Source of the DNA: Trypanosoma brucei
Taxonomy: Eukaryota
Assembly: GCA_000002445.1 (NCBI GenBank)
Contig: CP000066.1
Span: 352,001 to 416,000 of the forward strand
Direction of reading: 5' to 3'
Length of the DNA stretch: 64,000 bases
In this document: piece after piece, positions 15,079 through 49,536 of the stretch
How the letters are laid out: each line of letters starts with the position of its first letter
Position numbering within the stretch: the stretch's first letter is position 1
Program-made: the position numbers and the translations under genes
Notes under the pieces: generated by a model
The model's input: the letters and a program-made list of their open reading frames with translations, nothing else
The model's database searches: none
Told to the model about the DNA's origin: nothing

Positions 15079-15099
15079 TATATATATATATATATATAT
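15079..15099. repeat. (TA)n microsatellite abutting the AAA ATPase start codon
   Basis: Read directly in the sequence. Confidence 0.95.
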
Positions 15100-17542
15100 G
15101 GGTCGCCACCATGATGTGTCAACGGCAACTGTTAGTGCATCCTCTAAAGGTCCTCTCTTCTCGCTTACGGGAAGGGGTGGTGAAGTTAAACGGGCCCGTG
15201 AGTTGATTGCCTCCATTGGGGGCACTGTTACTTCAAATGATAACAAGGCGGATTACCTCGTTGCTGTAAAGGGCGCAGGGCGGCGTAAGGTGGAGGATTT
15301 TTGCAACGCAAGGCAAAATAATTCTCCCACTGACAGTGGAAACAAGGTGGTCCTTCTGGACATGTTGGAAGAGTGGAGCAGTAATGGTTCTCTGCCTAAG
15401 CGACGTGTAAGAATGGAAGACGCGGAGTTAACGAATTTGTTCAGCGCAGCCGCGAACGAACGTGCACGGCGCTCGTATGAAGTTCCTCCTAGTTTTCTGA
15501 AACGGTCCCGCGTAACACTCGATGCGGAGGGAAGCGTGGTGGATGAGTCAGACAACGCTGTGCTCCTTAAATGCGGCCCAACCCGGTCTCAGTTAGGGAA
15601 GATGACGCCGTCACCCTCCTCAGCTGCTACAGTGGAAACTGTACGTTGCAACGACCGAACGTCTCCTGTGAAGAATGGAAAGGCAGCTGGGACTACGCGC
15701 TTCCGACCACTACTTCTTGATGACGAGAGTCCTGACGATCAACCGAGCCGGCATCAAAAGATGGCTACTGAAATGAGTGGAAAGGTGAATCCGATGCGAT
15801 TAGCTTTCCGGCAGCGCCCTAAGCCCGACTGGGACACATATTTTTCGGATCCTTCTGTAGATTGCGGCGTATTAACCACTGAGGGAAGCACCACATCAAC
15901 AACGTTTCACCACCCAGCTTGCTCGTCAAAAAGTATTGGGTCGCAGCCCAAGGTGAAGCATACCCGTAACGAAGCTATATCTGATGGAAATATCGCAAAA
16001 CAGAAAAAAAATGGTGTCCTGTTACTGTTTGACACTAACAAGGTAAATTCCAACGGTCGGTCTTCTGTGCCTCCCAAAAGCGGCCAACGGCAAAGGGGGA
16101 CTGCAAGTATTCACAGTTGTAGTGTTGGTACAAAAACCGCTTCGGTATTGAGTAGGAGTGCAGGGAGTGCCAAAATACCTCCGCGACAGTTGTCGACAGT
16201 ACAGCAAAAAAAGAAAGAAGAGCAAAGCATCAGCCACGCAAGCAGAAACGCACCGGAGGGGGATCGAGGGCCACGCATCGAGTGCCCGACTGGCACATCT
16301 GCATCACTCTGCCGAGTCGTGCCAACAGTCCGCAGAGCCAACGAAGACAGTGCGAGCAGCAAGAAGGCGGCAACCAGTGGGGCGTCTCGAATGCCACCAT
16401 CACTTCCCCCTCGTCTCCAGGCCGCCTCAAAATCCTCTCGGACTGACGGAGTCGTCACAACTACGGACGGAGCGGTACCCCCGTCTACCCGGCAGTCCTG
16501 GAACTCACGGCCATCGTCGGCACCCGCAGCGCCCGCCAAACAAACTGGTGTTGCTGCCCGACGTTCAACGTGTTCGGATCCATTGCTAAAGCGCGTCCGC
16601 CAGAGCATATACTGCGAGGGCATTTCCGAGGAGGCCTGTGCAGCGGTGCTTCAGCAGGTTGTGGACCGCGCGTGCCCCGTCAACTTTGACAGCATCGCTG
16701 GCTTAGACACGTGCAAGCGTATTCTGCAAGAAACCATTATTCTTCCGGCGAAATGTCCACAACTGTTCACAGGTCTGCGCCGGCCTTGCAGTGGGTTGCT
16801 GCTTTTCGGGCCACCAGGAAACGGTAAGACATTATTGGCGAAAGCAGTGGCCAACGAGTGCAACACAACCTTTTTTAGCATCTCCGCAGCGGCGATTACT
16901 AGTAAATGGGTGGGTGAAAGTGAAAAGATGGTACGGGCGCTGTTTTCGGTTGCGCGCGCTCTTGCACCTAGCACAATATTTATTGATGAGGTCGATTCGT
17001 TGTTGCAAGCCCGTGGGGCTGCGCAAGAGGGTGAGGGGTCGCGTCGAATGAAAACGGAGTTTCTCGTGCAGATGGATGGAGCTGGGAACGACACGCAGAT
17101 GGCACGCGTATTGGTTATGGGGGCCACAAACCGACCATTTGACCTAGATGAAGCGGTAATTCGCCGGTTCCCGAAGCGAGTGTTCGTCCCACTCCCCGAT
17201 GCCCCCGCGCGGGCACAAATTCTACAAAAACTACTTAACACGGTGGAAACTCCAAATACTTTGAGCTCAGAGGCGTGGGAGAGGGTCGTCAAACTTACTA
17301 GTGGCTACAGTGGGCACGATTTGAGGCAACTCTGCGAAGACGCAGCGATGATTCCTGTGCGGGAGCTTGTGGCAGAGAAGCTACGAAAGGGGGAGAACTT
17401 GGCGGAGCACGCACACAACGCACTGTTGAGGCCGTTAACGCTCACTGATGTTGAAGCCTGTGTTAGTGGAATGAACCCCAGTTGTTGCCCGAAGCTATTA
17501 AATGCGTTGGAGGAGTGGAGCAAAACTTTCGGAAGTAAGTAG
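15098..17542 (+). CDS. AAA+ ATPase of the meiotic clade (fidgetin-like/spastin/katanin-p60 family) with an N-terminal BRCT-like domain and a long Ser/Pro-rich linker
   Basis: Walker A LLFGPPGNGKTLLAKAVA, Walker B IFIDEVDSL, ATNRPFDLDEA and the second region of homology are all present. The AAA core aligns closely with FIGNL1 as I recall it. N-terminal residues ~20-95 (LFSLTGRGG...ELIASIGGTV...DYLVAV...VVLLDMLEEW) fit a BRCT pattern. Confidence 0.85.
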   Translation: MGRHHDVSTATVSASSKGPLFSLTGRGGEVKRARELIASIGGTVTSNDNKADYLVAVKGAGRRKVEDFCNARQNNSPTDSGNKVVLLDMLEEWSSNGSLPKRRVRMEDAELTNLFSAAANERARRSYEVPPSFLKRSRVTLDAEGSVVDESDNAVLLKCGPTRSQLGKMTPSPSSAATVETVRCNDRTSPVKNGKAAGTTRFRPLLLDDESPDDQPSRHQKMATEMSGKVNPMRLAFRQRPKPDWDTYFSDPSVDCGVLTTEGSTTSTTFHHPACSSKSIGSQPKVKHTRNEAISDGNIAKQKKNGVLLLFDTNKVNSNGRSSVPPKSGQRQRGTASIHSCSVGTKTASVLSRSAGSAKIPPRQLSTVQQKKKEEQSISHASRNAPEGDRGPRIECPTGTSASLCRVVPTVRRANEDSASSKKAATSGASRMPPSLPPRLQAASKSSRTDGVVTTTDGAVPPSTRQSWNSRPSSAPAAPAKQTGVAARRSTCSDPLLKRVRQSIYCEGISEEACAAVLQQVVDRACPVNFDSIAGLDTCKRILQETIILPAKCPQLFTGLRRPCSGLLLFGPPGNGKTLLAKAVANECNTTFFSISAAAITSKWVGESEKMVRALFSVARALAPSTIFIDEVDSLLQARGAAQEGEGSRRMKTEFLVQMDGAGNDTQMARVLVMGATNRPFDLDEAVIRRFPKRVFVPLPDAPARAQILQKLLNTVETPNTLSSEAWERVVKLTSGYSGHDLRQLCEDAAMIPVRELVAEKLRKGENLAEHAHNALLRPLTLTDVEACVSGMNPSCCPKLLNALEEWSKTFGSK

Positions 17543-17859
17543 TACCGCCGAGCGACTCCACAAACTATGTGCACCCTGCGTTCCCCGTGACATAACCTGA
17601 AACATTTTTGTCAAGCTATTCTCCTCATCAACATGTTCTCCGCGTTCCCACAACATCTGCGCACTTTAAACAGTTTTGGACGGAACGGTTACAACACGTG
17701 TCCCGCCTCGCTGCCTTCGGTTACCATGTGGAGATGCCATCATGTAAACTGTTGGGAGGTGACGAAGTTGTCCCTGCAACGGGCACTCTTAATTGTATCA
17801 TTTGCCCCTTTCACAATTATGTCAGTCAATCACTTCCTTAATGAGTTCTTGTGTGCGCA

Positions 17860-17886
17860 TGTGTGTGTGTGTGTGTGTGTGTGTGT
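17860..17886. repeat. (GT)n microsatellite (mirror copy as (CA)n at 49505-49534)
   Basis: Read directly in the sequence. Confidence 0.95.
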
Positions 17887-18123
17887 CTTTCCATCATTTC
17901 TTCTTTTGGGCGATTGATTGCATGTGATGTATCGCGACGCTTGTAGCGGCCAATGTTTCCATTGCGTCAAGCGCCAGCGTATGTGTGTCCCACCCACCTT
18001 TTCCTAATTTCTCTGTGAGTTGGAAGTGTTTAAGTAAGTAATCGTAAGCCATTTACTTTCTTCAAACACAACAAGTGGTACTGAAGGTGTGAAACTTACC
18101 ACAAGTACGAAGACACTGATTAG

Positions 18124-19329
18124 GTGCGTGCAGATTCATACGTTGTGGCAATGCCGTGTGCCACTAAAGGAGAGGCTTCACCTCCCGTAACCACACCAGT
18201 GGGACGTGACGGGTGCCTTTGTGTCGTTACATGGCAGACTGCAGGGCGCATGTCACTACAAACATGTGCTTTGGAATCTGCTGCAGATGCACTAGTTTTC
18301 TTACGCAACAACTTACCGGGAATTGCACTGTGTGGTTTATGGGTGGACATGCAGAAGTGCAGTGAAGAAGAGCATCGGCAAGTTTTACAGCTGCTTTACC
18401 CAAACATGCAGCCGAGTCACGTGGAGGCTGTGCTTGCAAATGATATGTACGACGTGGTGGAGTTGCAACCTACGGAAGGTGAGTATGTTGTTGGCTGCCT
18501 TTCGTGTTCCCCGAGCCACGGCGGACCGTTTCCTGCTGCAACCGCTATGTCGCGCACTGAGTTAGGTTGCGAGGAAGGGGTTTTGTGCTCGTTTGTGTGT
18601 AGTGAGCGTGTACTACTGACGCTGCATACAGCACCGTTTGCCGGTCTCGCGGAGTTATTTCGTCATGTTCTGAGGGACAACTCCCAGTGGCCCATGAGTA
18701 TGTCGGCTATCCTTTGCACCCTCGTGTGTTACACATGCGAATTGAGCCTTCCCGATCCTACGGCCCTAATTGGGGAGGTGGATTGTATCGACGAGATGAT
18801 GCTGTTGGTTGCCCCGGGAAAGCGCGACCAAACGGATATGCTCCGACGGGTAGCTTTACTTCGCCGCCACCTTTCGGCATTGAACCGAAAGCTACAAGAA
18901 AAAGCGAAACTTATCTCAGAGATGACTGGTCCTGCAATGCGTACGACTTTTGTGTCACGTGAGTTGCATTTGGGTTATATGTATCGGGAGGCGCTTGAAG
19001 GACTTTCGCAAGTGCTGTCACGCCTCGAGTGTGCACAAGATACACTGGATCATGCAAACCTCAACTTTATGTACGCCATAACAATGCGGATGTCGCAGAC
19101 GTCAGCGGGTTGCGATCGCCAAGTTATGATTGTTAACAAGATTGCCACTATTTGCCTTCCAGCCATTCTGGTGGCCTCCTTGTTTGGAATGAACTGCAAG
19201 GTGCAGTGGGTGGCAGACGACTGCGACAGTCTTTACCCATTTTGGACTATTGTTGCTCTCATGATAGTTTGGATGGCTGCTCTCCTGTTTCAACCGGTCC
19301 GTGACCTCATCAGGGAAAAGGGTGGATAA
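18124..19329 (+). CDS. CorA/MRS2-family magnesium transporter-like protein (GMN motif), paralog 1. Start possibly at M10 (18151).
   Basis: C-terminal ...SLFGMNCKVQW... is followed by a hydrophobic transmembrane helix, the signature [FY]GMN plus two C-terminal TM helices. The N-terminal 176 aa are identical to the right-arm paralog and the C-terminal part is about 50% identical. Confidence 0.7.
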   Translation: MRADSYVVAMPCATKGEASPPVTTPVGRDGCLCVVTWQTAGRMSLQTCALESAADALVFLRNNLPGIALCGLWVDMQKCSEEEHRQVLQLLYPNMQPSHVEAVLANDMYDVVELQPTEGEYVVGCLSCSPSHGGPFPAATAMSRTELGCEEGVLCSFVCSERVLLTLHTAPFAGLAELFRHVLRDNSQWPMSMSAILCTLVCYTCELSLPDPTALIGEVDCIDEMMLLVAPGKRDQTDMLRRVALLRRHLSALNRKLQEKAKLISEMTGPAMRTTFVSRELHLGYMYREALEGLSQVLSRLECAQDTLDHANLNFMYAITMRMSQTSAGCDRQVMIVNKIATICLPAILVASLFGMNCKVQWVADDCDSLYPFWTIVALMIVWMAALLFQPVRDLIREKGG

Positions 19330-20818
19330 GCCACGAGGGTATCGTTGTTTTGTGCTTGAGGTTGAGATTAAAAACTCATCATTGAACGTTCTAACGGGTG
19401 TCGATCCTCGACTTGGGTGTAGTTTGCGATGTGTCCGGTGTGCCCCAAAGGGCGAGTGTGTAAAGTCACTTCATCATTTTGTTAATCTGTTGCTGTCCCC
19501 ATTTGTATGATCCGCACTTCCATGTGGTTGGCGGAGTTTCCCTAGCGCAGAAAGCGCTTAATTGAGTACCTCGTCTTTTCCTAAACCTTTGAAAAGGGGG
19601 AAATTGTGACCATATACGGAAAGCATACATTTAAAAGAAGGTGGAAAATGCGTCTTTCGGTCGAAAAGGAAAGTGTTGGGGGGCGAAGGTATGTTATTGT
19701 TCAGTGGAAGACCCTTCATCCTACCGGCGGGCTCACAAGTGATCGGCACCACCGCTACCACAAATGAAACCACTGATGACTATAACGTTTCACTCTTGTC
19801 GTACGAAATGTCTTGACGAAACTTATACTTCGTTTGATTCTGAATTATTTATTCCTTCCTTCACACCCTATCATTCGTCGCCCCTTATTTACTCTTTCCG
19901 TTGGAACAATGATGTGAATCTATCTGTGCAAATGACACCTCTAGTCTGAAACACAACATGACGCGAGCACAAATACAAGTTATCCCTGGCTGAGTAATCC
20001 AACTCCATTCTCTGTCCCTTCCCTAAGCAATTCATATCGAGTTCTCTACTGAGAGAATTCGCATATATTTTTTTTATTTCCCATGTAACAAGGTGTCTGA
20101 CGCCTTATTATATGCTGCTCAAGGCTGGTGTTACTCGTGAGTTTGCTCCCCGACGGCAACTTAAATTTTACCATAACACTTACGGAACTGTGTCTGTTGG
20201 TTGTTGACAGTGCCGAAGTTCAGTGCTCTTCCCTGATGAGTGTGAAGGTAAATGTCGCTACTTTCCCTCCGGTTGCTGAAACGGAGGTGCCAACGGGACT
20301 TGAGAGTGTGTTTAGATGGTTTCTTCCTTCAGTGGTGGGATACACTGCAGAGAAACTTGCAAAAAAATTTAACAGTATCTAAAACAATTTCATGACAAAG
20401 TTGACAATAAACAACTTTACGCCCATCCTTTCCCCGCCCCTGCTGGTGTTGCACGCAATGTTGTCGTTGGAGGGCTTTATGTCTTTCTGTTACAGAAGAA
20501 TGTCTCGCAACTCCTTTTCTCCACACTTCCCTGCGTATTTAATCGGGAACTAAAAGGATCACGGGGTTGCAGTAAGAGAAGACGTCGTTTCCATAAAGTT
20601 TGGGTCGAGGCGAGAGCAGCAGCGACATGTGGAGACAGAGTTTAAACAAATAGCACCAAATTATTAATTCTTCACTAAAGTCTTTAAAGTTCACTTACAG
20701 GTTTATACAAAGTGAAGAAATATGGCACGAAATAAAAAGCCATTGGACCACCATCTAGACAAACGGATTACCTGTAGGTTTTTGGAGGGATATTAACGCG
20801 TTCCGTTTCCCGCTTTCG

Positions 20819-21349
20819 TTGCCGCACATAATATGCCGGAAAAAATCCATGTTGAGTTACCACCGGATGGTCTTCTTTGCATATTTTCTCTCTTTAATTT
20901 TTGAGTCTTCTCCTTCTCCTCCTCCAATCACAAGCCTTCGTCTTTTTGAAAGTGCATCTCAGTGTGTAGGCAAAATGAGTTATATAATTGGCCATGTAAT
21001 GAAAAAGACGGTTTTTGTGCTAGTGTTTGCGATTGTTGCGGCATCCAAAAGTGATGAAGATGATAATGATGATGATTTTCGAGTACCCACATGTGAGCAA
21101 TTACTCCCACGGTGGCGGGACGATTTGATGTGCTGTGCTGAGAAGGTACGGGATAAAAACACTTGGTGTTGTGTCAACAACGTGTCAAAAAGCATGTGGA
21201 CTGCTTTAGAGGAATGTGCCAAACAATCCCCGCGTGATTTTACCACATACCCGTGTAGTTGTCTGTCGCAACAAATGATAGAAGCAAATGGTTGGACTGA
21301 AGAAAAGGAAAGAAGCATTAAGAATGCGGAGGAACGGGAATCGCAATAA
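20819..21349 (+). CDS. small Cys-rich acidic secreted protein. The likely true start is at 20975 (MSYIIG) or 20999 (MKKTVFVLVFAIVAAS signal peptide), giving a mature protein of about 100 aa with a poly-Asp/Glu tract.
   Basis: Conserved ORF in both inverted-repeat arms (46622-47161 on -). Signal-peptide-like hydrophobic stretch, 10 Cys, a DEDDNDDD tract. An upstream (GA)n(TA)n microsatellite follows the usual intergenic pattern. Confidence 0.45.
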   Translation: MPHIICRKKSMLSYHRMVFFAYFLSLIFESSPSPPPITSLRLFESASQCVGKMSYIIGHVMKKTVFVLVFAIVAASKSDEDDNDDDFRVPTCEQLLPRWRDDLMCCAEKVRDKNTWCCVNNVSKSMWTALEECAKQSPRDFTTYPCSCLSQQMIEANGWTEEKERSIKNAEERESQ

Positions 21350-22531
21350 AACATCAAGTGAGCTGGCAGCTGAAGAGGAAATTGTGGATTGAAAAGCGGA
21401 ACAAGCAATAAAGGAAGTTAGCTCGGCAACCTAGTTAGGCACACGTTTGGGAGTAAGACCAACCTCATGAAAAGAATAATCCTTACAGTAAGCAAATGAG
21501 AAGATGAAACAGATACATCAGTATCAAAAAAGGAGAGTCTGTCCCCCCCTCCCTTTACATTTGGTGACACCACTTCTCTTTATTGCTTTTACTTCATTAC
21601 TTATTTTATTTTAAGGTTTATCCATTGTGGGTTGTTTCTAGTTGCTATTTCACGATTTGTTTCATGCCAAACATGTACATGTCCCTTCGATAAGAAACAA
21701 GGTTTTCGAGTTGCAATGTTCATGTTGTTGCATGTGTATAAAGTTGGGCACTATTCCCTTTTATCCGCATCCGCAACTTCATCACTGTTTTGTGCAAGGA
21801 GGGGAGGGGAGGTATTTTAGCAAATTCTTTTCAGAATAATGTGAAACATAATTGGGAAACGCAATAAAACAAGGTAATGATGGGACGATGTGATGTGATG
21901 TTTTTGTTGTTGTTTTTGTTATTCTCGATTGTAGTTGATACCGCTAATTTTTTTTAACTTTTCAATACGGGGATGCATACATTTGATCGCTTTGCCTCCT
22001 TGATGTTGTGTACCTCTTATGAAATTATGTGTAGCATATCCTCCATGGGCTTTAATTCTTTTGATAGTAGTTGGTTGTCCCCCATTTGTAAAGTGTTGTC
22101 CACAAGATTTCTCCACAATAGATTTTGATCTGCTTGAAAACACGTTTTTTTTTATATTATGGTACAATAATATGTCACTCTTACAAACGTCACCTACAAA
22201 CGCATTACCATTATTAGTTGTTGAATATGTTTGCCCATTAGGCGAAGTGCTGGAGGTGCAAATGATAGTGAATAAACGGATTGAATTTTTGCACATTTAT
22301 GCTGAAGTAGATTATATTATGCGTAAATGAGTGTGTTTGGTTATTGGTGATTCCCCTTGTGAGGGGAATGGAAAAATTACGCTTAAGTTACATGCGGTGC
22401 TGGTGGAAACTTTAGTTTCCGTAATAAAGGCCACCATCGGTAACTTGGCTTACTTTCTTCTTTGTATTATGAAATTGGTGTGTCTGTGCTTTTACTTTTG
22501 ATTTTTCGAAAAAGGACAAAAGAAATAAAGG

Positions 22532-23629
22532 ATGCGGATATATTTCTCATTTATTGTCGTATTGTTGACTGGGACAGTGGAAAGTTCAAAAGCAGGAAAG
22601 AAGGGTTCACAAATATTGAATGAAAACGAGTTTAAAACATTATGTGGATTTGTCAATCTGACGTTTGAAATACAGAAATTGGCGAGTGAAGGAAAGCCAA
22701 CACTTGGAGGATTGAAACCTGAAAGTGTTAACGAGTCCGTGAATACCATTTTGTACGGCAACAAAGGCAGCACCGAAATTGGTTTCGAAGGCGAAAACGA
22801 CAGGAAAGATTACTGCGGGGACAGGCAAAATCGAGCCCACAAATATGCGGGGAAAAGCTTAATAAAGGATATTTTGTGTCTATGTAAACCCCACAGAAGG
22901 CAGGGCCAAAACGGGGCTGGTGCAGAAGATCTGTGTTTTAGCGGTAACAAGTGGTACAAGGGCGGTGAGGTGTGGAGCAATAAAGAGCAAGCTAAGCAGC
23001 ATTGGGAGAAAATAAGGTTGCATTGTAACCAACTTCCGAAACGGGAGCAACATATACAAAATCAATTATACCACTTAAAGGAAAAAGTTCAAGCAGTACT
23101 GAGAACAGCGACAGAAAAGAAGGGAAGGGAATCAGATCAAAACATACGACTCGGGGGTCATCAGGCAACAGAAGTGAAGCAATGCTCAGCAACCACTGGA
23201 AAGGGTAATTCGGTGTGTTTGATGTATAACATCACTTCCGGCACACTCACCAACCATAGCATCCCCTGGTTAAAGCATCTTGAAGAACTTGCCGAGAAAA
23301 TACCGAATGATACACGAACCAATTTGGGCACGAGTGAAAACGACGTCGAAACCGTTCCAAATGGAGTTGGAGATGCCGCACCTTCAACGGACCGAAAGAT
23401 TAACGAAGGCATTCGCACTAATGATGATAATAACAATAATAATGATAATGATAATATTAATTACAAGCACAATGATGGTAATAACACTGAATATAATCTA
23501 GAAGATCCACTAATGAATGAAAGCGGAACTAATACATCCGCAGAACCACAAACACGACCACTTTGGTCAGTAAATGGGAACCCTAACCCTAACCCTTTAA
23601 AAATACTTCTTTTACTGCTCTTAAATTAA
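22532..23629 (+). CDS. surface protein A: 365-aa putative GPI-anchored, N-glycosylated secreted glycoprotein (N-terminal signal peptide, C-terminal LKILLLLLLN hydrophobic tail), left-arm copy
   Basis: Signal peptide MRIYFSFIVVLLTGTVES. About 8 NxS/T sequons. Conserved Cys including a DILCLCKP motif. Asn/Asp-rich low-complexity region (NDDNNNNNDNDN). Short hydrophobic C-terminus typical of a GPI addition signal. Distantly related to gene B (shared NxxEFKTLCG and LCLC motifs). Confidence 0.7.
   Translation: MRIYFSFIVVLLTGTVESSKAGKKGSQILNENEFKTLCGFVNLTFEIQKLASEGKPTLGGLKPESVNESVNTILYGNKGSTEIGFEGENDRKDYCGDRQNRAHKYAGKSLIKDILCLCKPHRRQGQNGAGAEDLCFSGNKWYKGGEVWSNKEQAKQHWEKIRLHCNQLPKREQHIQNQLYHLKEKVQAVLRTATEKKGRESDQNIRLGGHQATEVKQCSATTGKGNSVCLMYNITSGTLTNHSIPWLKHLEELAEKIPNDTRTNLGTSENDVETVPNGVGDAAPSTDRKINEGIRTNDDNNNNNDNDNINYKHNDGNNTEYNLEDPLMNESGTNTSAEPQTRPLWSVNGNPNPNPLKILLLLLLN
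23583..23599. repeat. short telomere-like repeat (CCCTAA)x2.5 inside the 3' end of gene A (mirror copy TTAGGG x2.5 at 44378-44394)
   Basis: aaccctaaccctaaccc read directly. It encodes the NPNPNP just before the GPI signal. Confidence 0.6.
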
Positions 23630-26600
23630 AAATATATGCATATAAATATTAAAACTATTATATTTATGATGAGATACATGGGTTTTTTTAATACCGTCGG
23701 AAAAATTAATCAAATGTTTCTGTTTCAATATGTGCTTCCCTTTGGATGGCATAAAATATAATGGGGGGTGTGCAAGGTGTAATGTAAACATTTTTAGTTT
23801 TCGCTGTGGTGGCAGATGCTTACATATATTAAAATGATTTTATCGTTTCAGTGCCTAAGCCGTTTCTGCTTTGATGTCGGTGAGTGCCGAGCGAATTCGC
23901 GGATGATGTGCTGTACGAGTGGGGGATTACGTAAATAATTGATTTTTCGACTTATGTAAAGAAACGTATTTCGACATGCTTAAGATATTTTAAGTTAGGG
24001 AAATGTATACCCTTAAATGCATGCGGAGAGCGGCGGCAGGTGCTGTCGTCCACATTTTCCACAACGCTGAATACGACAGTACAGGCGAAAAAATTGCGAC
24101 AACATTCGTGAAGTGGGGGACTTGTATGTAAAGGTCCGAGAATTAAAAAAGTGTGGGTAAGCTTATGCAGATTAGGTCCCGAGTCCCCGTGACTCCTTTT
24201 CTATCAAATCTAGTGCATGCTGCGAGGACACCTTTTTGAGGTACTCCGACGCTGCGTTTTTAACGTCATTAATATCATTTGGGAATTTGAGCAATGAGGT
24301 AAGCGGTTGAGTTAGTGGGTAAGAATATTGCTTACTGGTAAGTGTGTTCTTAGGTTCAACTTACCAAATCAGGTAGATGTTGCCGATGTGTATGCCGGAG
24401 GGAGGTGGAAATGCAAGAGAGGGAGCCACTTCATTATTACATTTTTCGCGGATATGCAAGACGGTCACCTGCAAAGAATTTTGCTACGCGACTGAAAACA
24501 GAGAAAACAGAGTGTGTATAGGCTGAAGTATCAAAAAGGGGAGGCAAGTTCCCAGGGGGTGTTCTAGTATAAATGGCCCGAAAATTGAGAAAAAAAAGAT
24601 CGGGTACTGATTATCCAGTTAATGGCCTAAGACTGCTTGTGGTTGAGGTGTCTGTGTTTTCCCTAATTCATTCTCCTCTGGAGATGCAAATAAATTCATG
24701 TTTGGTGGTGTACTATATGACCGAAAGTTGTGTTCTTTGAGAATAATAAGGCGGTTGTATGCGGCTTCGTTTATGAGGAGCCGTAACGATTTGGGGCGAC
24801 TCTCCGCGATGGAGCGATGAGGGAGTTCACCGCCACCCGAGGGGGTTTTGGTCGATTTTGGAGATTTTGTAACATTGGGGCAGGGGCGAGAGAGTACTGA
24901 GGATATGTTAAGTATCCTTTCTCATAATTTGACTTAAAAGCGAAGTCTTACGTGGGGAGGAACGAGAGGTTACGTTGAACTTGTGCGTGCTTCCAGTTAG
25001 TATTCTGCTGGCTGTGTGGATGCACAACTTGAACCTGACTTACTTTTACCATATGCGGGAGACGGCGTATTCATGTCGACGAAATGTGGTGGTATCTGGG
25101 TATTGATCATATTGCCCGTTTGGCGCATCTACGATAACAATAGTGATGAGAGAGGTGTGCTGATTGCGTACGATGGTGCAACGTTATTTCAGGGGCAGTA
25201 TCGAAGTTGTATAATTTCATGTGCAGGCGAGTAGGATTGCTGGGAAGGAGAGTTTGTGTATGGTGCGTGTGCGAGAGTAAGGGCTATACGGCACCATAGC
25301 GAACTAAAGTGACTGAACTTATTTTCTCATTTGGTGCAAGGTCGCAGCGCAAACCAGCCACGAGTGGCACTCCCATAATAGGCGGCTCGTCGATACGTCA
25401 TGTGTATACTTCCAGAAAAAGTGCTCGTGCGGAGTAAGCAAAAACGTCATGTATATGGTTAGTGTTCACACGTTGGGAGCACAGTGTTTTATACCGAGAA
25501 GATATGGGTAATATTGCATATACAGTGGGTTTTTTTTAGCAAAGTAAGGAGTAACTTAGCAAACGGGTTGTGTGAAATGGCGTCTTTTTTCGGTGATGCC
25601 ACAATCGTCTGTGATGGCGAGGGAGGGAGGGTTGACATCAACGTAACCAATGTGAGTGTCTTCTGGACTGATGTGAGGAGCAGTGGAGTTCTGCTATTTG
25701 GAAGGATAACGAATGACAGGTATATTAACGTTCACAGAGGTAGACTAGATGCCAGGCTGCTTCTATTTCTCGTTCCTTCCTCGTGGTGACCGCGCCGCCG
25801 TTCTGCCCACAAATATGCATTACGTGTAAGTGGTGGTAAAGAAAGGGGGGATTGTTTACCTATCCCTCATGAAAGGACGTGTTAAAGGCGAAATGGCTTC
25901 TCAAAAGTGCAGAGAATGTTTTCTAGGTGGAGCACCGTCTTTCTGAGAACCGCGAGCAAGGGCTCACCCAGTTTGGTCAAGTGTTGTCTGCTTCATTTTC
26001 TATGCTTTGGTGTACCTCGCCTTTACAGTTTGAGGTGAAAGGGGAACATAATTAACTTAACCGCCCCCGCTCATTTGCACTCTGACTTCCGCAGTATGTG
26101 TTGTTTCTGCGTGGGCGTAGAGGAGCTGTTAGGCGAGTGGTGCCTTCACATTACGGAGGGATGAAATAACGAATGACAGACTGCAGTTTGTTTTTAACGT
26201 AACATGCATCTTTCTTTAGGTAGCGGACGTTGAACCCGCAGAAAGTGTGTTATTGTGACGTTAGAGGAAGAGGCAAGTCAAAAGATAAGCGGATACTAAC
26301 TAAACACTTTCGAGGCCGCCTGCATGGATAAATGGATAAATCAAGAGAAACAACAGATAAAACACGAGAATTACCTTTTATCGCGCGTCGCTCCTGCAGT
26401 AGGACGACCTTCTTCAGAATTCCTGGGCACAACTGCTGTCAGTACGTCCAGCAGGCTAGCTCGGGAAGAAAACTTAACCATAGTCTTCAACATACGCGCA
26501 TAAGTTCCTTTTGATTAAACAACCGGGTGGGATGGTTTTCCATCGTTTCCAGTCTACCAAGGGCAAATAGAAAAGCGGCAGCACCGCATTCATAACGCGA

Positions 26601-27404
26601 TTCATGCAGTGAGGACTCCTTCCTCGCCATCCGCGGCATGCCTTTTATACAATAAGGATCGCGCGACTCCGTGCTGCCTCCGCAGCCAAATAATTTTATC
26701 GTCGGCACCGTTTTGGTTCTACAGGGAAGGAGTGCCAGGCTTCAAACAAGTGCGGACATTTTGTGTTTGGGAAAGTGCTTTGTACCCCCGTCCCACACCA
26801 CCACCACTTTATGATTGCAGCAGAAAACATTCTTGAGGGGCCCGCCCACCTAGTGTCGAAAGTTGAGGGAACAGCACTTTCTTTACTCCTTGTAACGGTT
26901 GCAATTCTGAATTTCCTTCCGGTAAGTGACCTAATGGTAACGGGCAAGGTGCTGTCGCTTTCCTTGCTGCACTGGAAGGTGTCGAAAAGGGGGTGTCCTT
27001 CCTGTTGTCGGCACAGAAGTGGCATGGGTGAAGGTGGAAACAAAATGTGGGGAGAAGTATCAAACTTCAGTCAAAGGGCCTGTGCGTTGTTTGCATTGGT
27101 GGTACACGATGCCTGGAAGGTAAAAAAAAAGCGGCACATCGCGATTGGGAGCACTACTTGACCATTTGCGGTGCGGCGTGTGTAACACTAAAATATAAAA
27201 CAGTGATCGTGGGTAAGCAACAAACGACTGAACAGATTTATTATCTGGCCTCGCCTACTTGTATGTTGTGGTCCCTCGCTTCTTTTCCAATGTTCTTACC
27301 CACTCATCACTTCATATCATGCGTGGCTGAGTGTGAATTTCCCTACGTTCTATTGATACTGTCTTTTTCATTCTCATGTAGTCGCGTGTGCGGGACGCGC
27401 AAAC

Positions 27405-28307
27405 TTGTTGGATCTGAAAATGACGAGTGCTTCAAAAAAATCAACGGAAGAAAATAGTGAGGAAGTGGAATGTACCAATAGCTCCAGGAAACGGCGGATG
27501 AGACAGAGGGAACGGAACATATACATCTCGGAATGCCATGGAATAAAGGAGCTATCGTCGCTCGTACGTCGCGGGTTCCAGCAGATAATGACGGCGAGAG
27601 GGTTGTTTATATCTGGGTGCCCTGATCTCGTAAAACTGGATGATGGGACCAGTGGGGAAGAAGAGGGGGGAGAATATTACAGGCAGCTGGAAGAAGTCCA
27701 AGTTAGCAGGTGCCCTCGACTCACCGATTTAAGCGGGTTGGGGAAGTGCAAGTACTTGAAGGTGGTTGATATTTCTGACTGCCGAAAACTGGAAAACATA
27801 GGGGAACTTAAAAGTTGTCGAACACTGGAGAAACTCGCGCTCTCACGGTGCACAGGCTTGGTGGATGTGAATTTGAGGGGATTTGGTAAGTTGTTATCTT
27901 TCGATATTTTCAAATGTGCGAACTTGACAAAGATATGCGGACTTTTCGGATGCCCCATACTAGAAACATTAACCGTTGAGGAGTGTGGAGACGTGAAAGA
28001 AATGGAGGTACGAACTATACGAGGACGGGTGGAAACGCTGAGAATTGCAGGGAAGAGGGCTATGGAAAATGTGGGATTTTTGTGCCTCTTCACCAATATG
28101 AAAAAGCTCGCACTATGTGGGTGTGTTGGGACTGTCGCGGAGGTACTCGGAGAGGAGGCCGGTGGGCTTCCCCGTCTAAAATGGTTGGAGTTGATTGGCA
28201 TCCGCATGGAAAGGCAAATGAAGGATAAGCCTGGAAATGGTGTTGCAGCGACTGAGGAAGGAAATAACGCTAAACGGGTATTACCAATGATTGTTCAGAA
28301 CGAATGA
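27405..28307 (+). CDS. leucine-rich repeat protein (LRRP/ESAG8-like), short 300-aa member or fragment
   Basis: Tandem ~23-aa LRRs with the LxxCxxLxxL pattern (LSGLGKCKYLKVVDISDCRKLENIGELKSCRTLEKLALSRCTGL...), the same type as the 816-aa neighbour. The N-terminus is basic and its extent is uncertain. Confidence 0.5.
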   Translation: MLDLKMTSASKKSTEENSEEVECTNSSRKRRMRQRERNIYISECHGIKELSSLVRRGFQQIMTARGLFISGCPDLVKLDDGTSGEEEGGEYYRQLEEVQVSRCPRLTDLSGLGKCKYLKVVDISDCRKLENIGELKSCRTLEKLALSRCTGLVDVNLRGFGKLLSFDIFKCANLTKICGLFGCPILETLTVEECGDVKEMEVRTIRGRVETLRIAGKRAMENVGFLCLFTNMKKLALCGCVGTVAEVLGEEAGGLPRLKWLELIGIRMERQMKDKPGNGVAATEEGNNAKRVLPMIVQNE

Positions 28308-29469
28308 TCACCATCTTGACTAGCTGGTAAACTCATCGACAGTGATATGGGGCTGAAAACTATCACAGTCTCTCTTTGGAACAGCCTTTCTCGCACGCCA
28401 GATGGATATTACCACAGCGGGGTTTGTCATGTAATTACAGTGTGTATCTGAGTTTGAACGCGAGAATGGCCGGAAATTTTGTAGTTGTTGGTGTTTGTGG
28501 TTTCCTACGCAGGAAACCTTGTGATGGCGACAATTTCTTTAAACCAGTGCAAGTAGGCAGGAACACTGAACTGATTCAGTGCCACCTCAAAGTTGTTGAA
28601 AAGGTAGCCTGCGCCCAATAAGACCTTAAACAGACTTGCTATACGGTTCCTTTCGAAGTGGAAAACACGTTGTAGAGAGTAACTGTTAGTAAAAAAAAAC
28701 ACTATTACGAGATGACTAGGCGTGTGTGTGTGTGCAGGGGTGGTATTAAATTCTTATGTGTACTTGGGTGTTGTAGGTGTCTCTTATGGGAATTTCAAGA
28801 GTGGTCACTTGTTTGCCAGCGCGTGTGAGTGAGAAAAGGTTGTCGAGTGGGACGGCTTTTAAACTGCTTTATGAAAATGTGTATGTGGAAAAGTGTGCAT
28901 GGTGGGTAGTTGGTGCGATCCAACTTCAGGAAGTACCCGGTGACAATCAGCCATGTGGCGTGGGCGACCAAAAAAAACAAAGTTGGCAGATATTTTTTGT
29001 ACGTGGGGGAGTTGGGTTATGGAAAAAGCATATCATCAGCGCCATCGGGGGTTGGGAGGAGGCTGATAAAGTGAGAAGTGGGAGCGTTTAGGCTGTCTCC
29101 GGTGGTTTGTTTCACTTACAGTGGAAGTTGTCCGCCTTCTACCGATATTATGAGAGCCATGATAAACGCAGAGAAAGCAGTTGTCCCACCTATGCTTATA
29201 GGTACGTCGTTTCTATTGGCACACAACTGGAATACGTAAAGAGTTATGTGTTTTATAAACTCACGCGCATTTGTCGAGGAGATTGAAAAATTATGCAGAA
29301 AAGAAAACAGGGTAGTAATGTGTTGAATTTTATTCTGAAGACATACGTGTATGTCTACGACGGCTGTTAGTTGCGAAGAGCTGGTTGTTTTTCTCTGCTA
29401 TTGTCTCTGCTGCTTTACCTACCGTTTTTCCTTGATTTTCCTTGAAGCGTGTTAGGGAAAGTTCCATAG

Positions 29470-31920
29470 ATGGCAACACAGTTAAATAGTGATACGGTGA
29501 CAGACTCGTTTCCGAAAAGTGGGGAACAGCAATCGCGGTCAGACAGCGGGCTTGGTGAAAGGATGAACGCGGCAAGAAACAAAGGATGGAAAGAATTAGA
29601 TATATCCTATTTCAAGGAGGTGGAGGATGTGGGGAACCTCTGTGAAGTGGCAGGTTTGTTCTTGGAGGACCTAAACTTTAGCTGGTGCACGAACATCCGC
29701 ACAACTGGGTTGGAAAAAATATGCACAGTTGAGTGCTTTCCGAGTCTGCAAAGGCTGTATCTGAACGGCACAGGGACAAATGACAGATGCATCGACAAAC
29801 TCAGCCGTGGGAATCTAAGAGTTTTGGAGTGCGGGTATTGCAGAAACATTACGGACGTTAGGCCCCTTGAAAGGAATGAAACGCTGGAAGTACTTTCGCT
29901 TCGAGGGTGCCAGAACATCGTCCATGGGTTGGAGGATGTTTGCGGTCGGTGGCTAATAAATTTGAGAGAATTGTACTTGAGCGATATGGTAGCCGTCACG
30001 GATGCGTGCATAGAAGCTATCGGTAATAGTAAAAAAAGCCTGGTCCGCTTGGAATGTGAAAATTGTGAAAGAATCACAAACGTCAGTGCGTTGGGAAACG
30101 TCAAGACATTGAAGGTATTGTTGCTCAATCACTCCAAGAACATCGCAGAAGGAGTTTCTAATATCTTCGAAATATCGGAGCTTCAAGACTTAGGCTTCCG
30201 TGGTTTTGCTAAAATTACGCAAGTAAATTTGATGCCGTGGCAGCGTTGTGCGAGTTTAACAACCCTTGATCTCTCTGGATGCAAAAAAGTAACGAACTTG
30301 AATCTGGGTGGGGAGTGTAGAAAACTCGTGTGCCTTAAGCTTTCAGAGTGTCCGCAGCTGCGGGAAGTGGATATCACCGGGTGTGAAAGTTTGACTGCAC
30401 TAAATATTTCCGGACGTTGGCATCTTAAAGTTGTGAAATTGAATGGATGCAAGGAGTTGAAGTCGATTGATCTTTCCGTGTGTCCGCACCTTGAAGACGT
30501 ATATGGAGTATGCGACTGCAAAAACTTGGAAATTTTTAACCTTTGTTTTTGTTCACGACTCACAAAATTGGAACTGGTTGAGCTTGAAAAGTTAAAAATG
30601 TTGAATCTTTGCGGGTGTAAGGACCTTGAAGATATCGGAAGTCCAAGCAGGTGGGGCAAAAACTTGGTGGAGCTTAATGTTTCAATGTGCCGGAAGCTTA
30701 ACTACATGGATTTAAGCGGAAGAGTGAAGCTGGAGAAACTTAACCTTTCTCAATGCGACAGCCTTGTAGAGGTGAATTTAAGTGGGTGCCAAAACCTCTC
30801 TTCTTTACTTGATCTTTCAAACAGCAGGGAGCTCGAAATCTTGAATTTGTGCAACTGTGGGGAGTTGCCGGCGCTTAACGTTGACGGATGCGTGAATCTG
30901 CAAATACTGATTCTGAGCGGATGCCGCAGTCTGTCGACCATGAAACTTTCCGAATGCAACAACCTCAGGGAGACAGATTTTAGCGGCTGTGCGAAGTTGT
31001 CGGCTATCAAACTTTCCAGTAGAAGGGGGATAAAGTTAGTTAAATTGGACGGTTGTATAGATTTGATGTCTCTGGATTTGTCAGAGTGTGTGAGCCTTAA
31101 GGATTTGATTGGAGTAAGTGGCTGTACCCAACTCAAGTCACTCAATCTCTCAGGTTGCAGCAGGCTCGCTGATGTCGCCGCACTAAAGGACCTCAAGGGG
31201 CTGGTGAGGCTCAACCTTTCCAGGTTGGTGGAGGTTGTGGACCTGAGCATGCTGACTGGGCACGAGGATCTGGAGGAGCTCAACCTATCTCAATGTAACG
31301 CACTTGCCGATATAAGCGGACTGAAGGGCGAATGCTCGACAAAACTGATATCTTTGAATGTATCATGGTGCAGGAGCCTTTCGGCTATCTGTGTGCTGAG
31401 TGAGTGTTGCCGTAATTTGACCACGCTGGATATTTCAGGTTGCTGGAACCTCGATGATATGAGCGTGTTGGGGTCGTTAAAGAGCTTGAGTGTTCTTAAT
31501 CTTTCTTGGTGCAGTCAACTGACCGACATAAATATGTTAGCGGGTTTGAACTGCTTGGCTGTTCTTAACCTTTCTTGGTGCAATCAGCTGGTTGATGCGA
31601 GTGTAGTGAGCGAGTTGGAAAGTATAGCCATTCTTAACCTTTCATATTGTTGTGAATTAGCGCGTTTAAATTTGAGCGGATGCATAAAACTAAAGTGCCT
31701 TGATATCTGTGGATGCGTATCCCTCAAACATTTAACTGGATTACGCAAGTGCACGAATTTAGAATCACTCTTCGCTTGCGGATATCGCGACGCGGCAGAA
31801 GACGTTCGTGACGAGTTCCTGAACATTCCATGCTCCGCTACGTTACATATCGATGAAAGCACGGACCGGGAGGTAATACAGGAACTCATGGGTTGGGGTG
31901 TTAGAGTCAAAACAATCTGA
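29470..31920 (+). CDS. leucine-rich repeat protein (LRRP, ESAG8-related LRR family), 816 aa, about 25 LRRs, no RING finger seen
   Basis: Long array of 22-24-aa Cys-containing LRRs (L-S/N-L-S-x-C-x-x-L-x-D/E-x-x-x-L). This is the repeat type I recall for T. brucei ESAG8/LRRP1. It is the last + strand gene before the strand switch. Confidence 0.8.
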   Translation: MATQLNSDTVTDSFPKSGEQQSRSDSGLGERMNAARNKGWKELDISYFKEVEDVGNLCEVAGLFLEDLNFSWCTNIRTTGLEKICTVECFPSLQRLYLNGTGTNDRCIDKLSRGNLRVLECGYCRNITDVRPLERNETLEVLSLRGCQNIVHGLEDVCGRWLINLRELYLSDMVAVTDACIEAIGNSKKSLVRLECENCERITNVSALGNVKTLKVLLLNHSKNIAEGVSNIFEISELQDLGFRGFAKITQVNLMPWQRCASLTTLDLSGCKKVTNLNLGGECRKLVCLKLSECPQLREVDITGCESLTALNISGRWHLKVVKLNGCKELKSIDLSVCPHLEDVYGVCDCKNLEIFNLCFCSRLTKLELVELEKLKMLNLCGCKDLEDIGSPSRWGKNLVELNVSMCRKLNYMDLSGRVKLEKLNLSQCDSLVEVNLSGCQNLSSLLDLSNSRELEILNLCNCGELPALNVDGCVNLQILILSGCRSLSTMKLSECNNLRETDFSGCAKLSAIKLSSRRGIKLVKLDGCIDLMSLDLSECVSLKDLIGVSGCTQLKSLNLSGCSRLADVAALKDLKGLVRLNLSRLVEVVDLSMLTGHEDLEELNLSQCNALADISGLKGECSTKLISLNVSWCRSLSAICVLSECCRNLTTLDISGCWNLDDMSVLGSLKSLSVLNLSWCSQLTDINMLAGLNCLAVLNLSWCNQLVDASVVSELESIAILNLSYCCELARLNLSGCIKLKCLDICGCVSLKHLTGLRKCTNLESLFACGYRDAAEDVRDEFLNIPCSATLHIDESTDREVIQELMGWGVRVKTI

Positions 31921-34900: not shown

Positions 34901-36093
34901 TGTATCTCTACTCCAAAACATGCAACACTGTTCCACGTAACTTTCGCAATTTTCCTCACTACACAAATTTCCACGAACTCCTTAAACCTCCGAAAGCGAC
35001 GAATCGGCCCCACTTTGGTGATATCCCCCTCAACCTTGTCAAGTATCCCCCTGCTCTTCCCTTGTGATGCGGTTGTTGAAAACGACTAATACACACAAAA
35101 CTCCCAGTGTACTCCATCCTACCACAAAAAAAAAACATATAGTTGCATCCTCCATCGCCTGTTACCAACATTTGATTTCCGATTATTTTTTGTATGCGCA
35201 GCATAAAGTTCCTTAAATTACCCTCACACCATGATATTTATAGTGGTTAACAACAGTCTCTCTCCTATCGATAAAGGGGTGAACCAGCCGCTTTGCACAC
35301 ACTTTGTGCCCGGCTACATCTTTTTGTCTCTAAGGTGAGGGCATTTTCCCGTGAATTTATGATTTCACCGCATTTTTTTCCTCCAAATTTCTGCCAACTC
35401 TGTATTGAAACAACTGAACTCATTCTATCAAATATTCCGTTAATTCTTGAGCACATCAGCACACACTCTCGAAAACCCGGTGAATGCTGCGACAAAACCT
35501 CCATCGGAGCGATCACGCTTTAGACAGAAATGCAATTCCTGAGAACATTACCGATAAAACGTGTAACCATCCGCACTACATTCAACTCTACACTTTTCTG
35601 GGAGTCTTTACCACACACCTTTATCCCTTCTATTCACTTAAGGTGTTAAATCTAATTTACTCAATACCTATTTCAAGGGATTGTCAATTCCATCTTGTTA
35701 AAAAAGGGACAAACCAGCTTGGAAGGAGTTTTCCTTTCTATTCCGCATTCTTTCACTTCACGGGATACTGAGAGTATTGTTCAGTCAATATTATTGAAAA
35801 AAAAATGTCAACACACTGCTGTAGCAAAAAAAAAAAAGAAAGCATAACTTGAGTGATATTTGAATCACATCACGTCGCTTACTATATGAATTTCCCATTT
35901 ACATTTGCTATCCTCTAATTCACATCCCTCCCCTGCCTTGAATCCACTAGTGTTTACCTGTTGTTGACGTTACCATCGTTAAACGTCAGAAGAGCCTTTT
36001 TTGGAATCACGCCCGTGCTCATTCTGACGTTGCTTTCCTTTTCTCTTAGTTTCCCGTCTTACCTGATATTTGCCAATTCAAACCAGGTTTTAC

Positions 36094-37194
36094 TTAATTT
36101 TTGGCATTGCCAATTTTCCTGTTTGACTCTTCAAACTCTTTTTGTAGCTTTTCAATGGCATCTGCGAGCGTTCTCTTATCATTCTCGTAGTCTTTCAGAT
36201 CCCTCATTTCGTTGAAAACTTTTAACAACTCCCTCATCCACGGTATATTCTTAATATCTCTGTTCCTACCCCTAACCACGTAGCGCACACGGTGGCCAGG
36301 GGCTTCTTGGGGCAGAATCCAGAGCCGCCAGAAGCTGAACTTTCTCCTATCACCAAAGACATAGGTAGTTCCGGTACATCCATCAACACCGTGGTTAATC
36401 ATGTCGCGGAAGTCGTTTACTAGTTTGTTAAACCCTTCTTGTGGGCCTTCCATACTTGAGCACTGTTCTTTGAGAAAATACCACCTTTCCCCCGCGTCTT
36501 CATCTGGTCTCCACACCGCCCTATTATCTCCCCTAGCGCAACGACTACAGCAGAGCTGAGTTTCTCTTCCCAAATTCATACGAGGCGCGCACAAACACAA
36601 CAAATCCCTACTCAATGATACGGACGCTTTAAGCTTTTGTGAACGTGAGAGTTGCTGCTCACATACCTGTCTCCTGTCGGAACTGCGTGCTTTAATTTCT
36701 TGTGGTCGATATGGAACACCATACAGCGCGCGATTAATACCTTTTTCGAGATCACTTGCTTTCAAAACCCATCTCCGATTTTTGGTTATATTTTGGAATA
36801 TCTGCGCAACGGAAAGAACCTTTTTTCTAATCTCCACCACTTCACGTTCGGACAATCCTCCTACCGAAAGTAGGGTTGTATTTCCCCTAGTTGCCAATTC
36901 TTTTTTCGATTCATTCCAAAACACTTTGTGGAGTGCACAGTTTCTTTTCCCCGCGCCTTCGCAAGTTTTGTTCAAATCCCTGTCTCCACTCATTTCCAAA
37001 TACATTGCTCCAATTCGAGCCGCCCCTTTAGTGATTTCCTGTGCTTCTTTCATCTTTCCAAGTGCTGCTTCTGCCAAATTTATCATGCCACACAATGTCT
37101 TAAACTCATCCCCGTTAACTATCCGCCGATCACCCGAGACAGTTGCCGGGAATACCAGCGCAAGCAAAACAGTGCAAAGATTTATAGCGCGCAT
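36094..37194 (-). CDS. surface/secreted protein B, copy 1 (366 aa). Signal peptide present, no hydrophobic C-terminus, so it is secreted or partners with a GPI-anchored protein.
   Basis: Signal peptide MRAINLCTVLLALVFPATVSG, NGDEFKTLCG and DLLCLCAP motifs shared with gene A, several NxS/T sequons. On the - strand, consistent with the right-hand gene block. Confidence 0.7.
   Translation of the reverse strand: MRAINLCTVLLALVFPATVSGDRRIVNGDEFKTLCGMINLAEAALGKMKEAQEITKGAARIGAMYLEMSGDRDLNKTCEGAGKRNCALHKVFWNESKKELATRGNTTLLSVGGLSEREVVEIRKKVLSVAQIFQNITKNRRWVLKASDLEKGINRALYGVPYRPQEIKARSSDRRQVCEQQLSRSQKLKASVSLSRDLLCLCAPRMNLGRETQLCCSRCARGDNRAVWRPDEDAGERWYFLKEQCSSMEGPQEGFNKLVNDFRDMINHGVDGCTGTTYVFGDRRKFSFWRLWILPQEAPGHRVRYVVRGRNRDIKNIPWMRELLKVFNEMRDLKDYENDKRTLADAIEKLQKEFEESNRKIGNAKN

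Positions 37195-49505: not shown

Positions 49506-49536
<31 letters not shown>

Follow-up and report, generated by a model that had tools for sequence, protein, structure and literature searches.

Gene conversion between the arms of palindromes is well known from other genomes, e.g., from the ampliconic palindromes of the human Y chromosome. In Trypanosoma brucei, partial gene conversion that leaves chimaeric copies behind has been described for 21 of 47 tandem arrays (Jackson 2007, PMC1855330), and in Leishmania major, MGT1 and MGT2 have been placed in the CorA / Mrs2 / Alr1 family (Zhu et al. 2009, as cited in PMC3694164). Here, we analyzed a stretch of 64,000 nucleotides of T. brucei DNA (assembly GCA_000002445.1, contig CP000066.1, positions 352,001 to 416,000), called the window below, which holds two genes whose proteins both carry the database name "MGT2 magnesium transporter". 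We refer to these genes as paralogs A and B. We consider it very probable that A and B are ancient paralogs between which partial gene conversion has recurred, covering the part that encodes the N-terminal core of the protein, while their 3' parts have gone on diverging.

The locus resembles the human Y palindromes in that its inverted arms are more than 99% identical around a unique spacer, and in that the two arms of one lineage resemble each other more closely than either resembles its ortholog in another lineage. Unlike in those palindromes, the arms are only about 6 kb long, and each is broken by an exchange-free island of 1.6-2.1 kb that contains half a gene. With the tandem arrays of Jackson 2007 (PMC1855330), the locus shares non-reciprocal exchange between paralogs in one polycistronic region, as well as mosaic copies whose converted parts group by species in trees; however, the T. 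brucei pair is inverted, with 28.6 kb between its members across a strand-switch region, and a single boundary has been reused in the deepest sampled Trypanosoma lineages. A text search of that paper for "magnesium" and "CorA" did not find the pair among its arrays. At the protein level, the likeness to CorA / Mrs2 / Alr1 channels comprises the Pfam CorA domain, the GMN motif, two C-terminal transmembrane (TM) helices, and an alpha/beta subdomain followed by a funnel. Whereas one MGT2-type sequence was recovered per Leishmania-related species, Trypanosoma has two, and these are mosaic. The two T. brucei genes are the following (aa, amino acids):

18151..19329, + strand, CorA/MGT2 paralog A, 392 aa (AAZ10180.1 / XP_843739.1 / Q57XX8; Pfam CorA E = 5e-16)
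47958..49241, - strand, CorA/MGT2 paralog B, 427 aa (AAZ10188.1 / XP_843747.1 / Q57XY6; Pfam CorA E = 1e-16)

To judge by the Tbg972.3 gene names, the window would be part of chromosome 3. Both proteins match T. b. brucei TREU927 entries exactly and score well above the cutoff of 27 bits for Pfam CorA (PF01544), with 59 bits for A and 61 bits for B. A profile of the family matches CorA chains of T. maritima (E = 3e-6), and the FGMN motif is present in both paralogs (LFGMNCKV in A, LFGMNLKV in B), its residues G346, M347, and N348 being invariant in 25 sequences. An AlphaFold model of A (pLDDT 77, pTM 0.69) contains a long helix (residues 272-346) and a terminal helix (362-391), and shows the order of elements of a CorA fold, i.e., an N-terminal alpha/beta domain, then a helical funnel, a stalk helix that continues into the first TM helix (TM1), and the second TM helix (TM2). 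When this model was searched with Foldseek, the top 50 matches were all CorA structures, nearly all of them from T. maritima (E = 1e-13, TM scores of 0.5-0.6). Between T. melophagium and T. theileri, the ratio of non-synonymous to synonymous substitution rates (dN/dS) of the C-terminal half is 0.03 for orthologs of A and 0.08 for orthologs of B. Because the C-terminal orthologs are under such strong purifying selection, neither copy is a pseudogene, and judging by sequence, both halves of both proteins look functional.

The inverted similarity in the window consists of exactly two repeat blocks, A and B, and a search across the window for further inverted similarity found none. Between the two blocks, each arm carries a divergent island (UTR, untranslated region; ORF, open reading frame):

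17687..18671, + strand, left block A, 464 bp 5' of the ATG and codons 1-174 of paralog A
18672..20817, + strand, left divergent island, 2146 bp, codons 174-392 of paralog A and a 1.49-kb 3' flank
20818..23839, + strand, left block B, a small acidic ORF (20819-21349) and a VSG-related gene (22532-23629, Pfam VSG_B)
44133..47162, - strand, right block B, a VSG-related gene (44343-45440) and a small ORF (46622-47161)
47163..48720, - strand, right divergent island, 1558 bp, codons 174-427 of paralog B and a 0.8-kb 3' flank
48721..49707, - strand, right block A, 466 bp 5' of the ATG and codons 1-174 of paralog B

The two copies of block A (17687-18671 versus 49707-48721, 985 bp) are ~99.5% identical and differ only upstream of the ATG, by 3 substitutions and a (TG)n indel of 2 bp. 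Within the coding sequence (CDS), identity is complete up to 18671/48721, the second base of codon 174 as counted from the annotated ATG at 18151, and then collapses: ungapped windows of 30 nucleotides (nt) give five consecutive values of 1.0 up to 18671, followed by 0.23, 0.13, 0.30, 0.33, and 0.17. Before the step, the CDS agrees at every position (521/521 nt); beyond it, 341 of 655 codon-aligned nt agree (52%; Fisher p = 5e-100 for the contrast), and an unbroken run of 521 matches at p = 0.52 would arise with a chance of about 1e-148. Over the 218 codons that align past the step, the proteins are 45-47% identical, and B has 35 extra codons. A mirror-image step is found at 20817/20818, where block B begins (20818-23839 versus 47162-44133); over its 3022 bp, the arms are 99.5% identical, with 5 substitutions, one 9-bp indel, and one 1-bp indel. 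The first-pass annotation of this DNA had reported an abrupt drop in identity in mid-CDS, and sliding-window identity bears this out: the change occurs within one base, and the gradual decay that would have spoken against it was not seen. Its coordinates needed small adjustments, of 1-3 bases and two codons, which are of no consequence. The drop had been placed after codon 176, a count that starts from an upstream GTG; the return of perfect identity, which is real, lies at 20818/47162 rather than 20817/47165; and the 100% identity that had been extended to the upstream DNA holds within the CDS, the 464 bp upstream of it being about 99.5% identical.

The history of the two parts of the gene was read from separate trees. 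In the tree of C-terminal halves, the Trypanosoma sequences form clades A and B with 100% bootstrap each, and the non-Trypanosoma sequences, one each from the Leishmania, Leptomonas, Novymonas, Porcisia, and Strigomonas species recovered in homolog searches, fall outside both. Each clade holds T. brucei, T. congolense, and stercorarian (T. cruzi-group) sequences, and both clades are present in T. brucei, for which only two MGT2-type proteins were found, and in T. congolense, T. cruzi, T. melophagium, T. theileri, T. conorhini, and T. grayi. Since clades A and B both span the sampled Trypanosoma, the duplication is older than the deepest sampled split in the genus. For the N-terminal core, defined as the segment from the WVD motif to the RHV motif, the tree instead pairs A with B within T. 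brucei, T. congolense, T. melophagium, and T. theileri (99-100% support). The lengths of the proteins and the amino-acid identity between the A and B cores are as follows, whereas A/B identity in the C-terminal half is 45-50% in all seven species:

T. brucei: core identity 100% (lengths given above)
T. congolense: A-type 392 aa, B-type 427 aa, core identity 100%
T. melophagium: A-type 403 aa, B-type 434 aa, core identity 99%
T. theileri: A-type partial, B-type 432 aa, core identity 98%
T. cruzi: A-type 401 aa, B-type 436 aa, core identity 75%
T. conorhini: A-type 339 aa (partial), B-type 435 aa, core identity 61%
T. grayi: A-type 413 aa, B-type 426+ aa, core identity 54%

The cores of T. brucei and T. 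congolense differ from each other by 23%, so each species has been homogenised separately, after their split. Within the core, synonymous divergence (dS) between the paralogs is 0 in both T. brucei and T. melophagium and reaches 0.04 in T. theileri and 0.42 in T. cruzi, while in the C-terminal half it is saturated; third codon positions in the core are 100% identical. In T. melophagium, the tract measures 351 bp at 99.4% identity, lies wholly within the CDS, and has sharp edges. The core of T. cruzi is a patchwork in which stretches of 93-98% nt identity stand beside stretches of 40-70%, a pattern that several short tracts, converted at different times, would be expected to leave. In T. grayi, the core is as diverged as the C-terminal half, and the species thus serves as an unhomogenised control, with genes that lack recent conversion. 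Purifying selection was considered as a reason for this identity and rejected: synonymous sites and 464 bp of upstream non-coding DNA are alike in T. brucei, which non-reciprocal exchange explains and selection on the protein does not, and a core dN/dS of about 0.4-0.5 between T. melophagium and T. theileri, i.e., faster evolution than in the C-terminal half, excludes it as well. Between the same two species, dS is 0.19-0.25 in the core, below the 0.56-0.61 of the C-terminal half. In T. vivax, the A-type protein (CAEX01005322.1, about 300-1433) is annotated with 316 aa from an internal Met; because the reading frame runs on upstream through the WVD motif, this gene model probably lacks the true 5' end of the gene.

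Exchange between the arms can also be followed within T. brucei. Both blocks recur in T. b. gambiense DAL972, with identical inner edges, around a spacer that is about 6 kb shorter, and the orientation of the left arm is alike in TREU927, DAL972, and IVM-t1. We classified variable sites as AABB when a strain-specific variant is present in both arms, and as ABAB when an arm-specific variant is common to both strains. Between TREU927 and DAL972, block A has 10 AABB and 0 ABAB sites and block B has 23 and 0; in both blocks together, there are 33 AABB, 0 ABAB, and 0 ABBA sites. The arms are 99.5-99.8% alike within a strain, as against 98.6-99.0% between orthologous arms, and at the protein level, TEL is found in both copies of TREU927 and AEF in both copies of DAL972. 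The islands are 99.1% (left) and 98.8% (right) identical between the two strains. The 33 AABB sites, together with the absence of ABAB sites, indicate that exchange between the arms went on after the subspecies separated. This exchange must have been non-reciprocal, because a crossover between inverted copies inverts the DNA in between and does not homogenise it.

In T. melophagium, T. cruzi (three assemblies), T. theileri, and T. grayi, the genes lie in tandem on one strand, in the order AAA - A - B, and tblastn found AAA ATPase orthologs in four relative loci, including those of T. melophagium and T. theileri. From this shared synteny, the ancestral layout is tandem, namely giant protein - DnaJ - AAA - A - B. 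In T. brucei, A keeps the ancestral place directly after the AAA gene, and B is inverted, 28.6 kb from A, across a convergent strand-switch region, where it has a different neighbour:

15098..17542, + strand, AAA ATPase gene (Pfam AAA), synteny anchor of the ancestral locus
49723..50631, - strand, Rce1-like CAAX protease gene (Pfam Rce1-like), neighbour of the relocated paralog B

No Rce1-like counterpart was found by tblastn beside the CorA pair in the T. melophagium, T. cruzi, and T. theileri loci, and the right-arm neighbours as a group (Rce1-like, Rab3GAP-like, kinase, and others) gave no tblastn matches to these three loci either. Two further arrangements were seen in relatives. In T. grayi (JMRU01000770.1, 3556-4071), a CorA fragment of 171 aa, whose 3' part (3678-3984) matches that of A (5498-5801) at 98.4% identity, lies between the AAA gene and paralog A; this truncated third copy suggests unequal recombination at the locus. 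In T. equiperdum OVI (scaffold CZPT02001330.1, 7076-9707), the AAA gene (window 15079-17686) is found between the Rce1-like gene and CorA-B, flanked by N runs (7076-7085 and 9698-9707) at the (TG)n microsatellite. We considered this Rce1-AAA-B order as a true variant and rejected it, given that N runs at (TG)n point most likely to a scaffolding error caused by the palindrome.

The position of the 3' boundary is shared by every homogenised species: in each, the tract ends at positions that correspond to residues 167-181 of T. brucei A. This is the start of a length-variable, indel-rich linker, in which B has 27-35 extra residues. In the AlphaFold model of A, residue 174 falls close to where helix 166-178 ends; this helix closes the N-terminal alpha/beta subdomain and is followed by a loop (179-183). 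On this model, the homogenised module is the alpha/beta subdomain, and the divergent portion is the rest of the protein with its own 3' UTR and the intergenic DNA downstream. The 5' end of the tract is placed differently. In T. melophagium, T. theileri, and T. cruzi, it falls at the WVD motif, around codon 60, and the first ~60 codons are paralog-specific, with 17-25% identity. In the salivarian species T. brucei and T. congolense, the common protein segment reaches the start codon, and at the DNA level, the T. brucei tract extends 464 bp 5' of the ATG.

We propose the following course of events. An MGT2-type CorA gene would have been duplicated in tandem downstream of the AAA ATPase gene before the sampled Trypanosoma diverged. 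From then on, the 3' parts (funnel, stalk, TM1, GMN, TM2, and each gene's own 3' UTR) would have diverged while being conserved within each ortholog lineage, and the C-terminal half and the linker probably did so under selection for different channel or regulatory properties. The segment for the alpha/beta subdomain would have been homogenised repeatedly, and independently in several lineages, by non-reciprocal homologous recombination, with tracts that always stop at the end of the last helix of the subdomain, where the linker with the extra codons of B begins. Past the linker, the copies differ by ~50% and by an indel, so that strand exchange could presumably not extend further, and any tracts that did run past the linker would presumably be selected against; either effect would keep the boundary sharp. 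In T. brucei, homologous recombination depends strictly on the length of the substrate and is impeded by mismatches (PMC1904282). With the C-terminal half and linker diverged, tracts could not cross, and the boundary would sustain and reinforce itself. A self-sustaining boundary of this kind would account for the conserved position of the tract end, its coincidence with an indel, the exclusion of the 3' flank, and the independent homogenisation of block B. In T. brucei, B has also been relocated across the convergent strand-switch region, where it lies inverted, and another block, with VSG-related genes, has been duplicated in inverted orientation; the two homologous blocks are still exchanged from arm to arm around an island that no longer recombines.

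The reading proposed in the first-pass annotation is supported here, and extended. Its two old, diverged paralogs correspond to the two ancient C-terminal clades (100% bootstrap), and the comparison of N- and C-terminal phylogenies that it had suggested came out as it predicted, with the core grouping by species and the C-terminal half by paralog; these trees, the synonymous and upstream identity, and the sharpness of the step all agree with gene conversion. A pseudogene, which would have counted against this reading, was looked for as well, and both ORFs are intact, with the GMN motif and orthologs under purifying selection. The overwriting, described there as recent, is best read as conversion, yet not as one event, as it recurs independently in several species with the same 3' boundary. 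The downstream neighbours had been thought overwritten too; with its VSG-related genes, described as T. brucei-specific (PMC3605285), block B is better read as an inverted duplication that conversion has kept uniform. The split between an identical cytosolic N-terminal domain and different membrane and pore domains is real, although the divergent part also takes in the cytosolic funnel and stalk, as well as 3' UTR and intergenic DNA. The term "promoter-proximal" for the converted halves does not apply to polycistronic trypanosome genes.

Several points weigh against recurrent conversion as set out here. Conversion is read from patterns in sequences, with no event observed directly; the trees are neighbour-joining trees of short segments with one genome per species, and the T. 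congolense comparison used proteins only. DAL972 was assembled on the TREU927 template (PMC2854126), which could inflate the AABB counts, and assembly can make the arms of a repeat artificially alike. Nonetheless, 22 singleton differences among the four arms argue that these were not simply collapsed in assembly, and at about 350 bp, the tracts of T. melophagium and T. theileri fall below the length at which such an artefact would arise. The donor direction of conversion left only a weak signal: the core may be of B-like type, as judged by its grouping with T. grayi B (93%) and a 5-aa indel, and the N-terminus in T. brucei may be A-like, both again weakly. We infer heterology or selection as the barrier at the boundary, and likewise which copy acted as donor and by what route B came to be inverted.

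An explanation that we consider unlikely as a whole, though compatible with recurrent conversion, is that the identity itself is selected for. CorA-family proteins are pentameric, and among yeast proteins, Alr1/Alr2 and Mrs2/Lpe10 form hetero-oligomers; A and B might likewise form a heteropentamer, or a common regulator might dock on the N-terminal subdomain of both, in which case the boundary would be functional. That the boundary coincides with the end of a structural subdomain in the model of A, and that the pattern occurs in at least four lineages and outlived the change from tandem to inverted in T. brucei, would fit this. However, both genes persist in T. grayi, T. conorhini, and T. cruzi although their cores have diverged (54%, 61%, and 75% aa identity), and identity of the core is therefore not required. 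Non-synonymous evolution of the core is moreover fast, at the dN/dS of about 0.4-0.5 noted above compared to 0.03-0.08 for the C-terminal half, and the T. brucei tract takes in 464 bp of non-coding DNA, with the neighbouring block B equally homogenised.

Far less probable is a single domain swap per lineage, by unequal crossover or one conversion, without continuing exchange. A deletion-type crossover between tandem cores would indeed yield a chimera with the 5' part of A and the 3' part of B, much like T. brucei B, and the truncated fragment in T. grayi shows that unequal recombination occurs at the locus, but the 33 AABB and 0 ABAB sites demand exchange after TREU927 and DAL972 separated, and T. 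brucei and T. congolense have the same architecture with a core difference of 23%, so that each was homogenised after their split, which is equally true of T. melophagium and T. theileri. The mix of patches of 93-98% and 40-70% nt identity in T. cruzi also speaks against one swap, and a crossover cannot homogenise inverted copies at all. We give still less credence to a scenario in which the left arm was recently duplicated in full, in inverted orientation, and one copy then had its middle replaced, with a third, diverged CorA gene as donor. Its attraction lies in the outer edge of right block A, which is found 16 bp past the stop codon of the Rce1-like gene, much like an insertion junction, and in the VSG-related genes of block B, which, being described as T. 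brucei-specific (PMC3605285), must be duplicated rather than inherited. Against this, the right island is an ortholog of B, which adjoins A in all other species; the same A/B mosaic exists in T. congolense; and a donor would be needed that was later lost, with only two MGT2-type proteins found for T. brucei. Finally, an assembly artefact in which the reads of one copy were used for both is scarcely credible: repeats of 1-3 kb are hard to assemble, and the T. equiperdum OVI scaffold is visibly misjoined at the repeat, but the mosaic is found in independent assemblies and species, including tracts of 351 bp and roughly 300 bp within tandem genes, and the arms carry private differences.

Around the CorA pair, the window shows the anatomy of a palindrome. 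On the + strand, a giant protein gene, a DnaJ gene, and the AAA ATPase gene lead into the left arm, and on the - strand, the Rce1-like protease gene precedes the right arm. Between the arms lies the spacer:

23840..44132, no strand, spacer of 20.3 kb, convergent strand-switch region with a leucine-rich-repeat gene (+ strand) and two VSG-related genes (- strand)

Given this layout of + and - strand genes in arms and spacer, together with a flip in the sign of the GC skew near 32 kb in the window, the locus is a palindrome whose arms, 5.6 to 6.2 kb in length, enclose a convergent strand-switch region with an internal island of VSG-related genes. Internal VSG-related gene islands at such regions are a described class in T. 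brucei (PMC3605285; PMC2854126). An Rfam search of the window for structured RNA gave no match. The spacer contains a tandem direct duplication with a unit of 6.07 kb (32804-37581 and 38872-43647), 97.6% identical overall with long stretches of 100%, and each unit carries a VSG-related gene on the - strand (36094-37194 and 42163-43263). The proteins of this pair are identical outside a patch at ~aa 207-300, and the DNA sampled there (36326-36625 versus 42395-42694) is only 72% identical, making this a second abrupt identity island in the window.

Length differences within the repeat blocks are confined to microsatellites. One is the (TG)n run upstream of the CorA genes, with (TG)13 versus (TG)14 (17860-17886 / 49506-49534); another is an (ATC/GAT)n run (21065 / 46895-46928), through which the small ORF of the right arm gains three Asp. 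A (TA)n(GA)n run (47163-47200) abuts the junction of the right island with block B, and the left junction has no such run. A scan of the left 3' flank of paralog A for ORFs gave short, unconvincing ones only. The small ORFs, one per arm between the CorA and VSG-related genes (20819-21349, 176 aa, and 46622-47161, 179 aa), are Cys-rich, with a hydrophobic stretch and an acidic tract, and their sole Pfam match ("Meg", E = 6e-4) is below threshold. Gene callers report products of 129-186 aa at this position in other T. brucei-group assemblies.

We found nothing specific in the literature on the MGT2 pair, its Tb927.3 identifiers, or conversion at the locus, nor a paper on the transport activity or localisation of T. 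brucei A and B, which are predicted channels. The pair and its mosaic are thus apparently undescribed, and since no paper on them was found, we count the pair as a new example of a process, partial conversion, that is already known. Two Mgt2-type CorA mRNAs have been reported as enriched in stumpy forms (PMC3694164); the supplements of that transcriptome paper do not list the two genes, and the identical 5' halves could confound mRNA assays of this kind. More generally, the T. brucei MGT2 genes have the same 5' UTR and first 174 codons, and RNA interference fragments, probes, short reads, or peptides taken from there do not discriminate between them. Only the island, i.e., the C-terminal half and the 3' UTR, tells the two genes apart.

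Trypanosome mRNAs are usually regulated via the 3' UTR. If identity of the core were selected for after all, conversion of an exact module would have been favoured since the base of the genus, leaving funnel, pore, and 3' UTR free to specialise, and the locus would be a natural case of selected, domain-specific concerted evolution. The palindrome itself can cause misassembly, as in T. equiperdum OVI, and might permit inversion of the VSG-related gene island. The locus stands out because one boundary has been reused across the genus, because the pattern has persisted after the change from tandem to inverted, and because a natural unhomogenised control is present. With recurrent partial conversion as the preferred reading, the MGT2 pair offers a well-resolved natural case in which gene conversion and divergence partition one gene between them, one structural module being homogenised throughout the existence of the genus and the rest diverging, with the border fixed at a linker indel.

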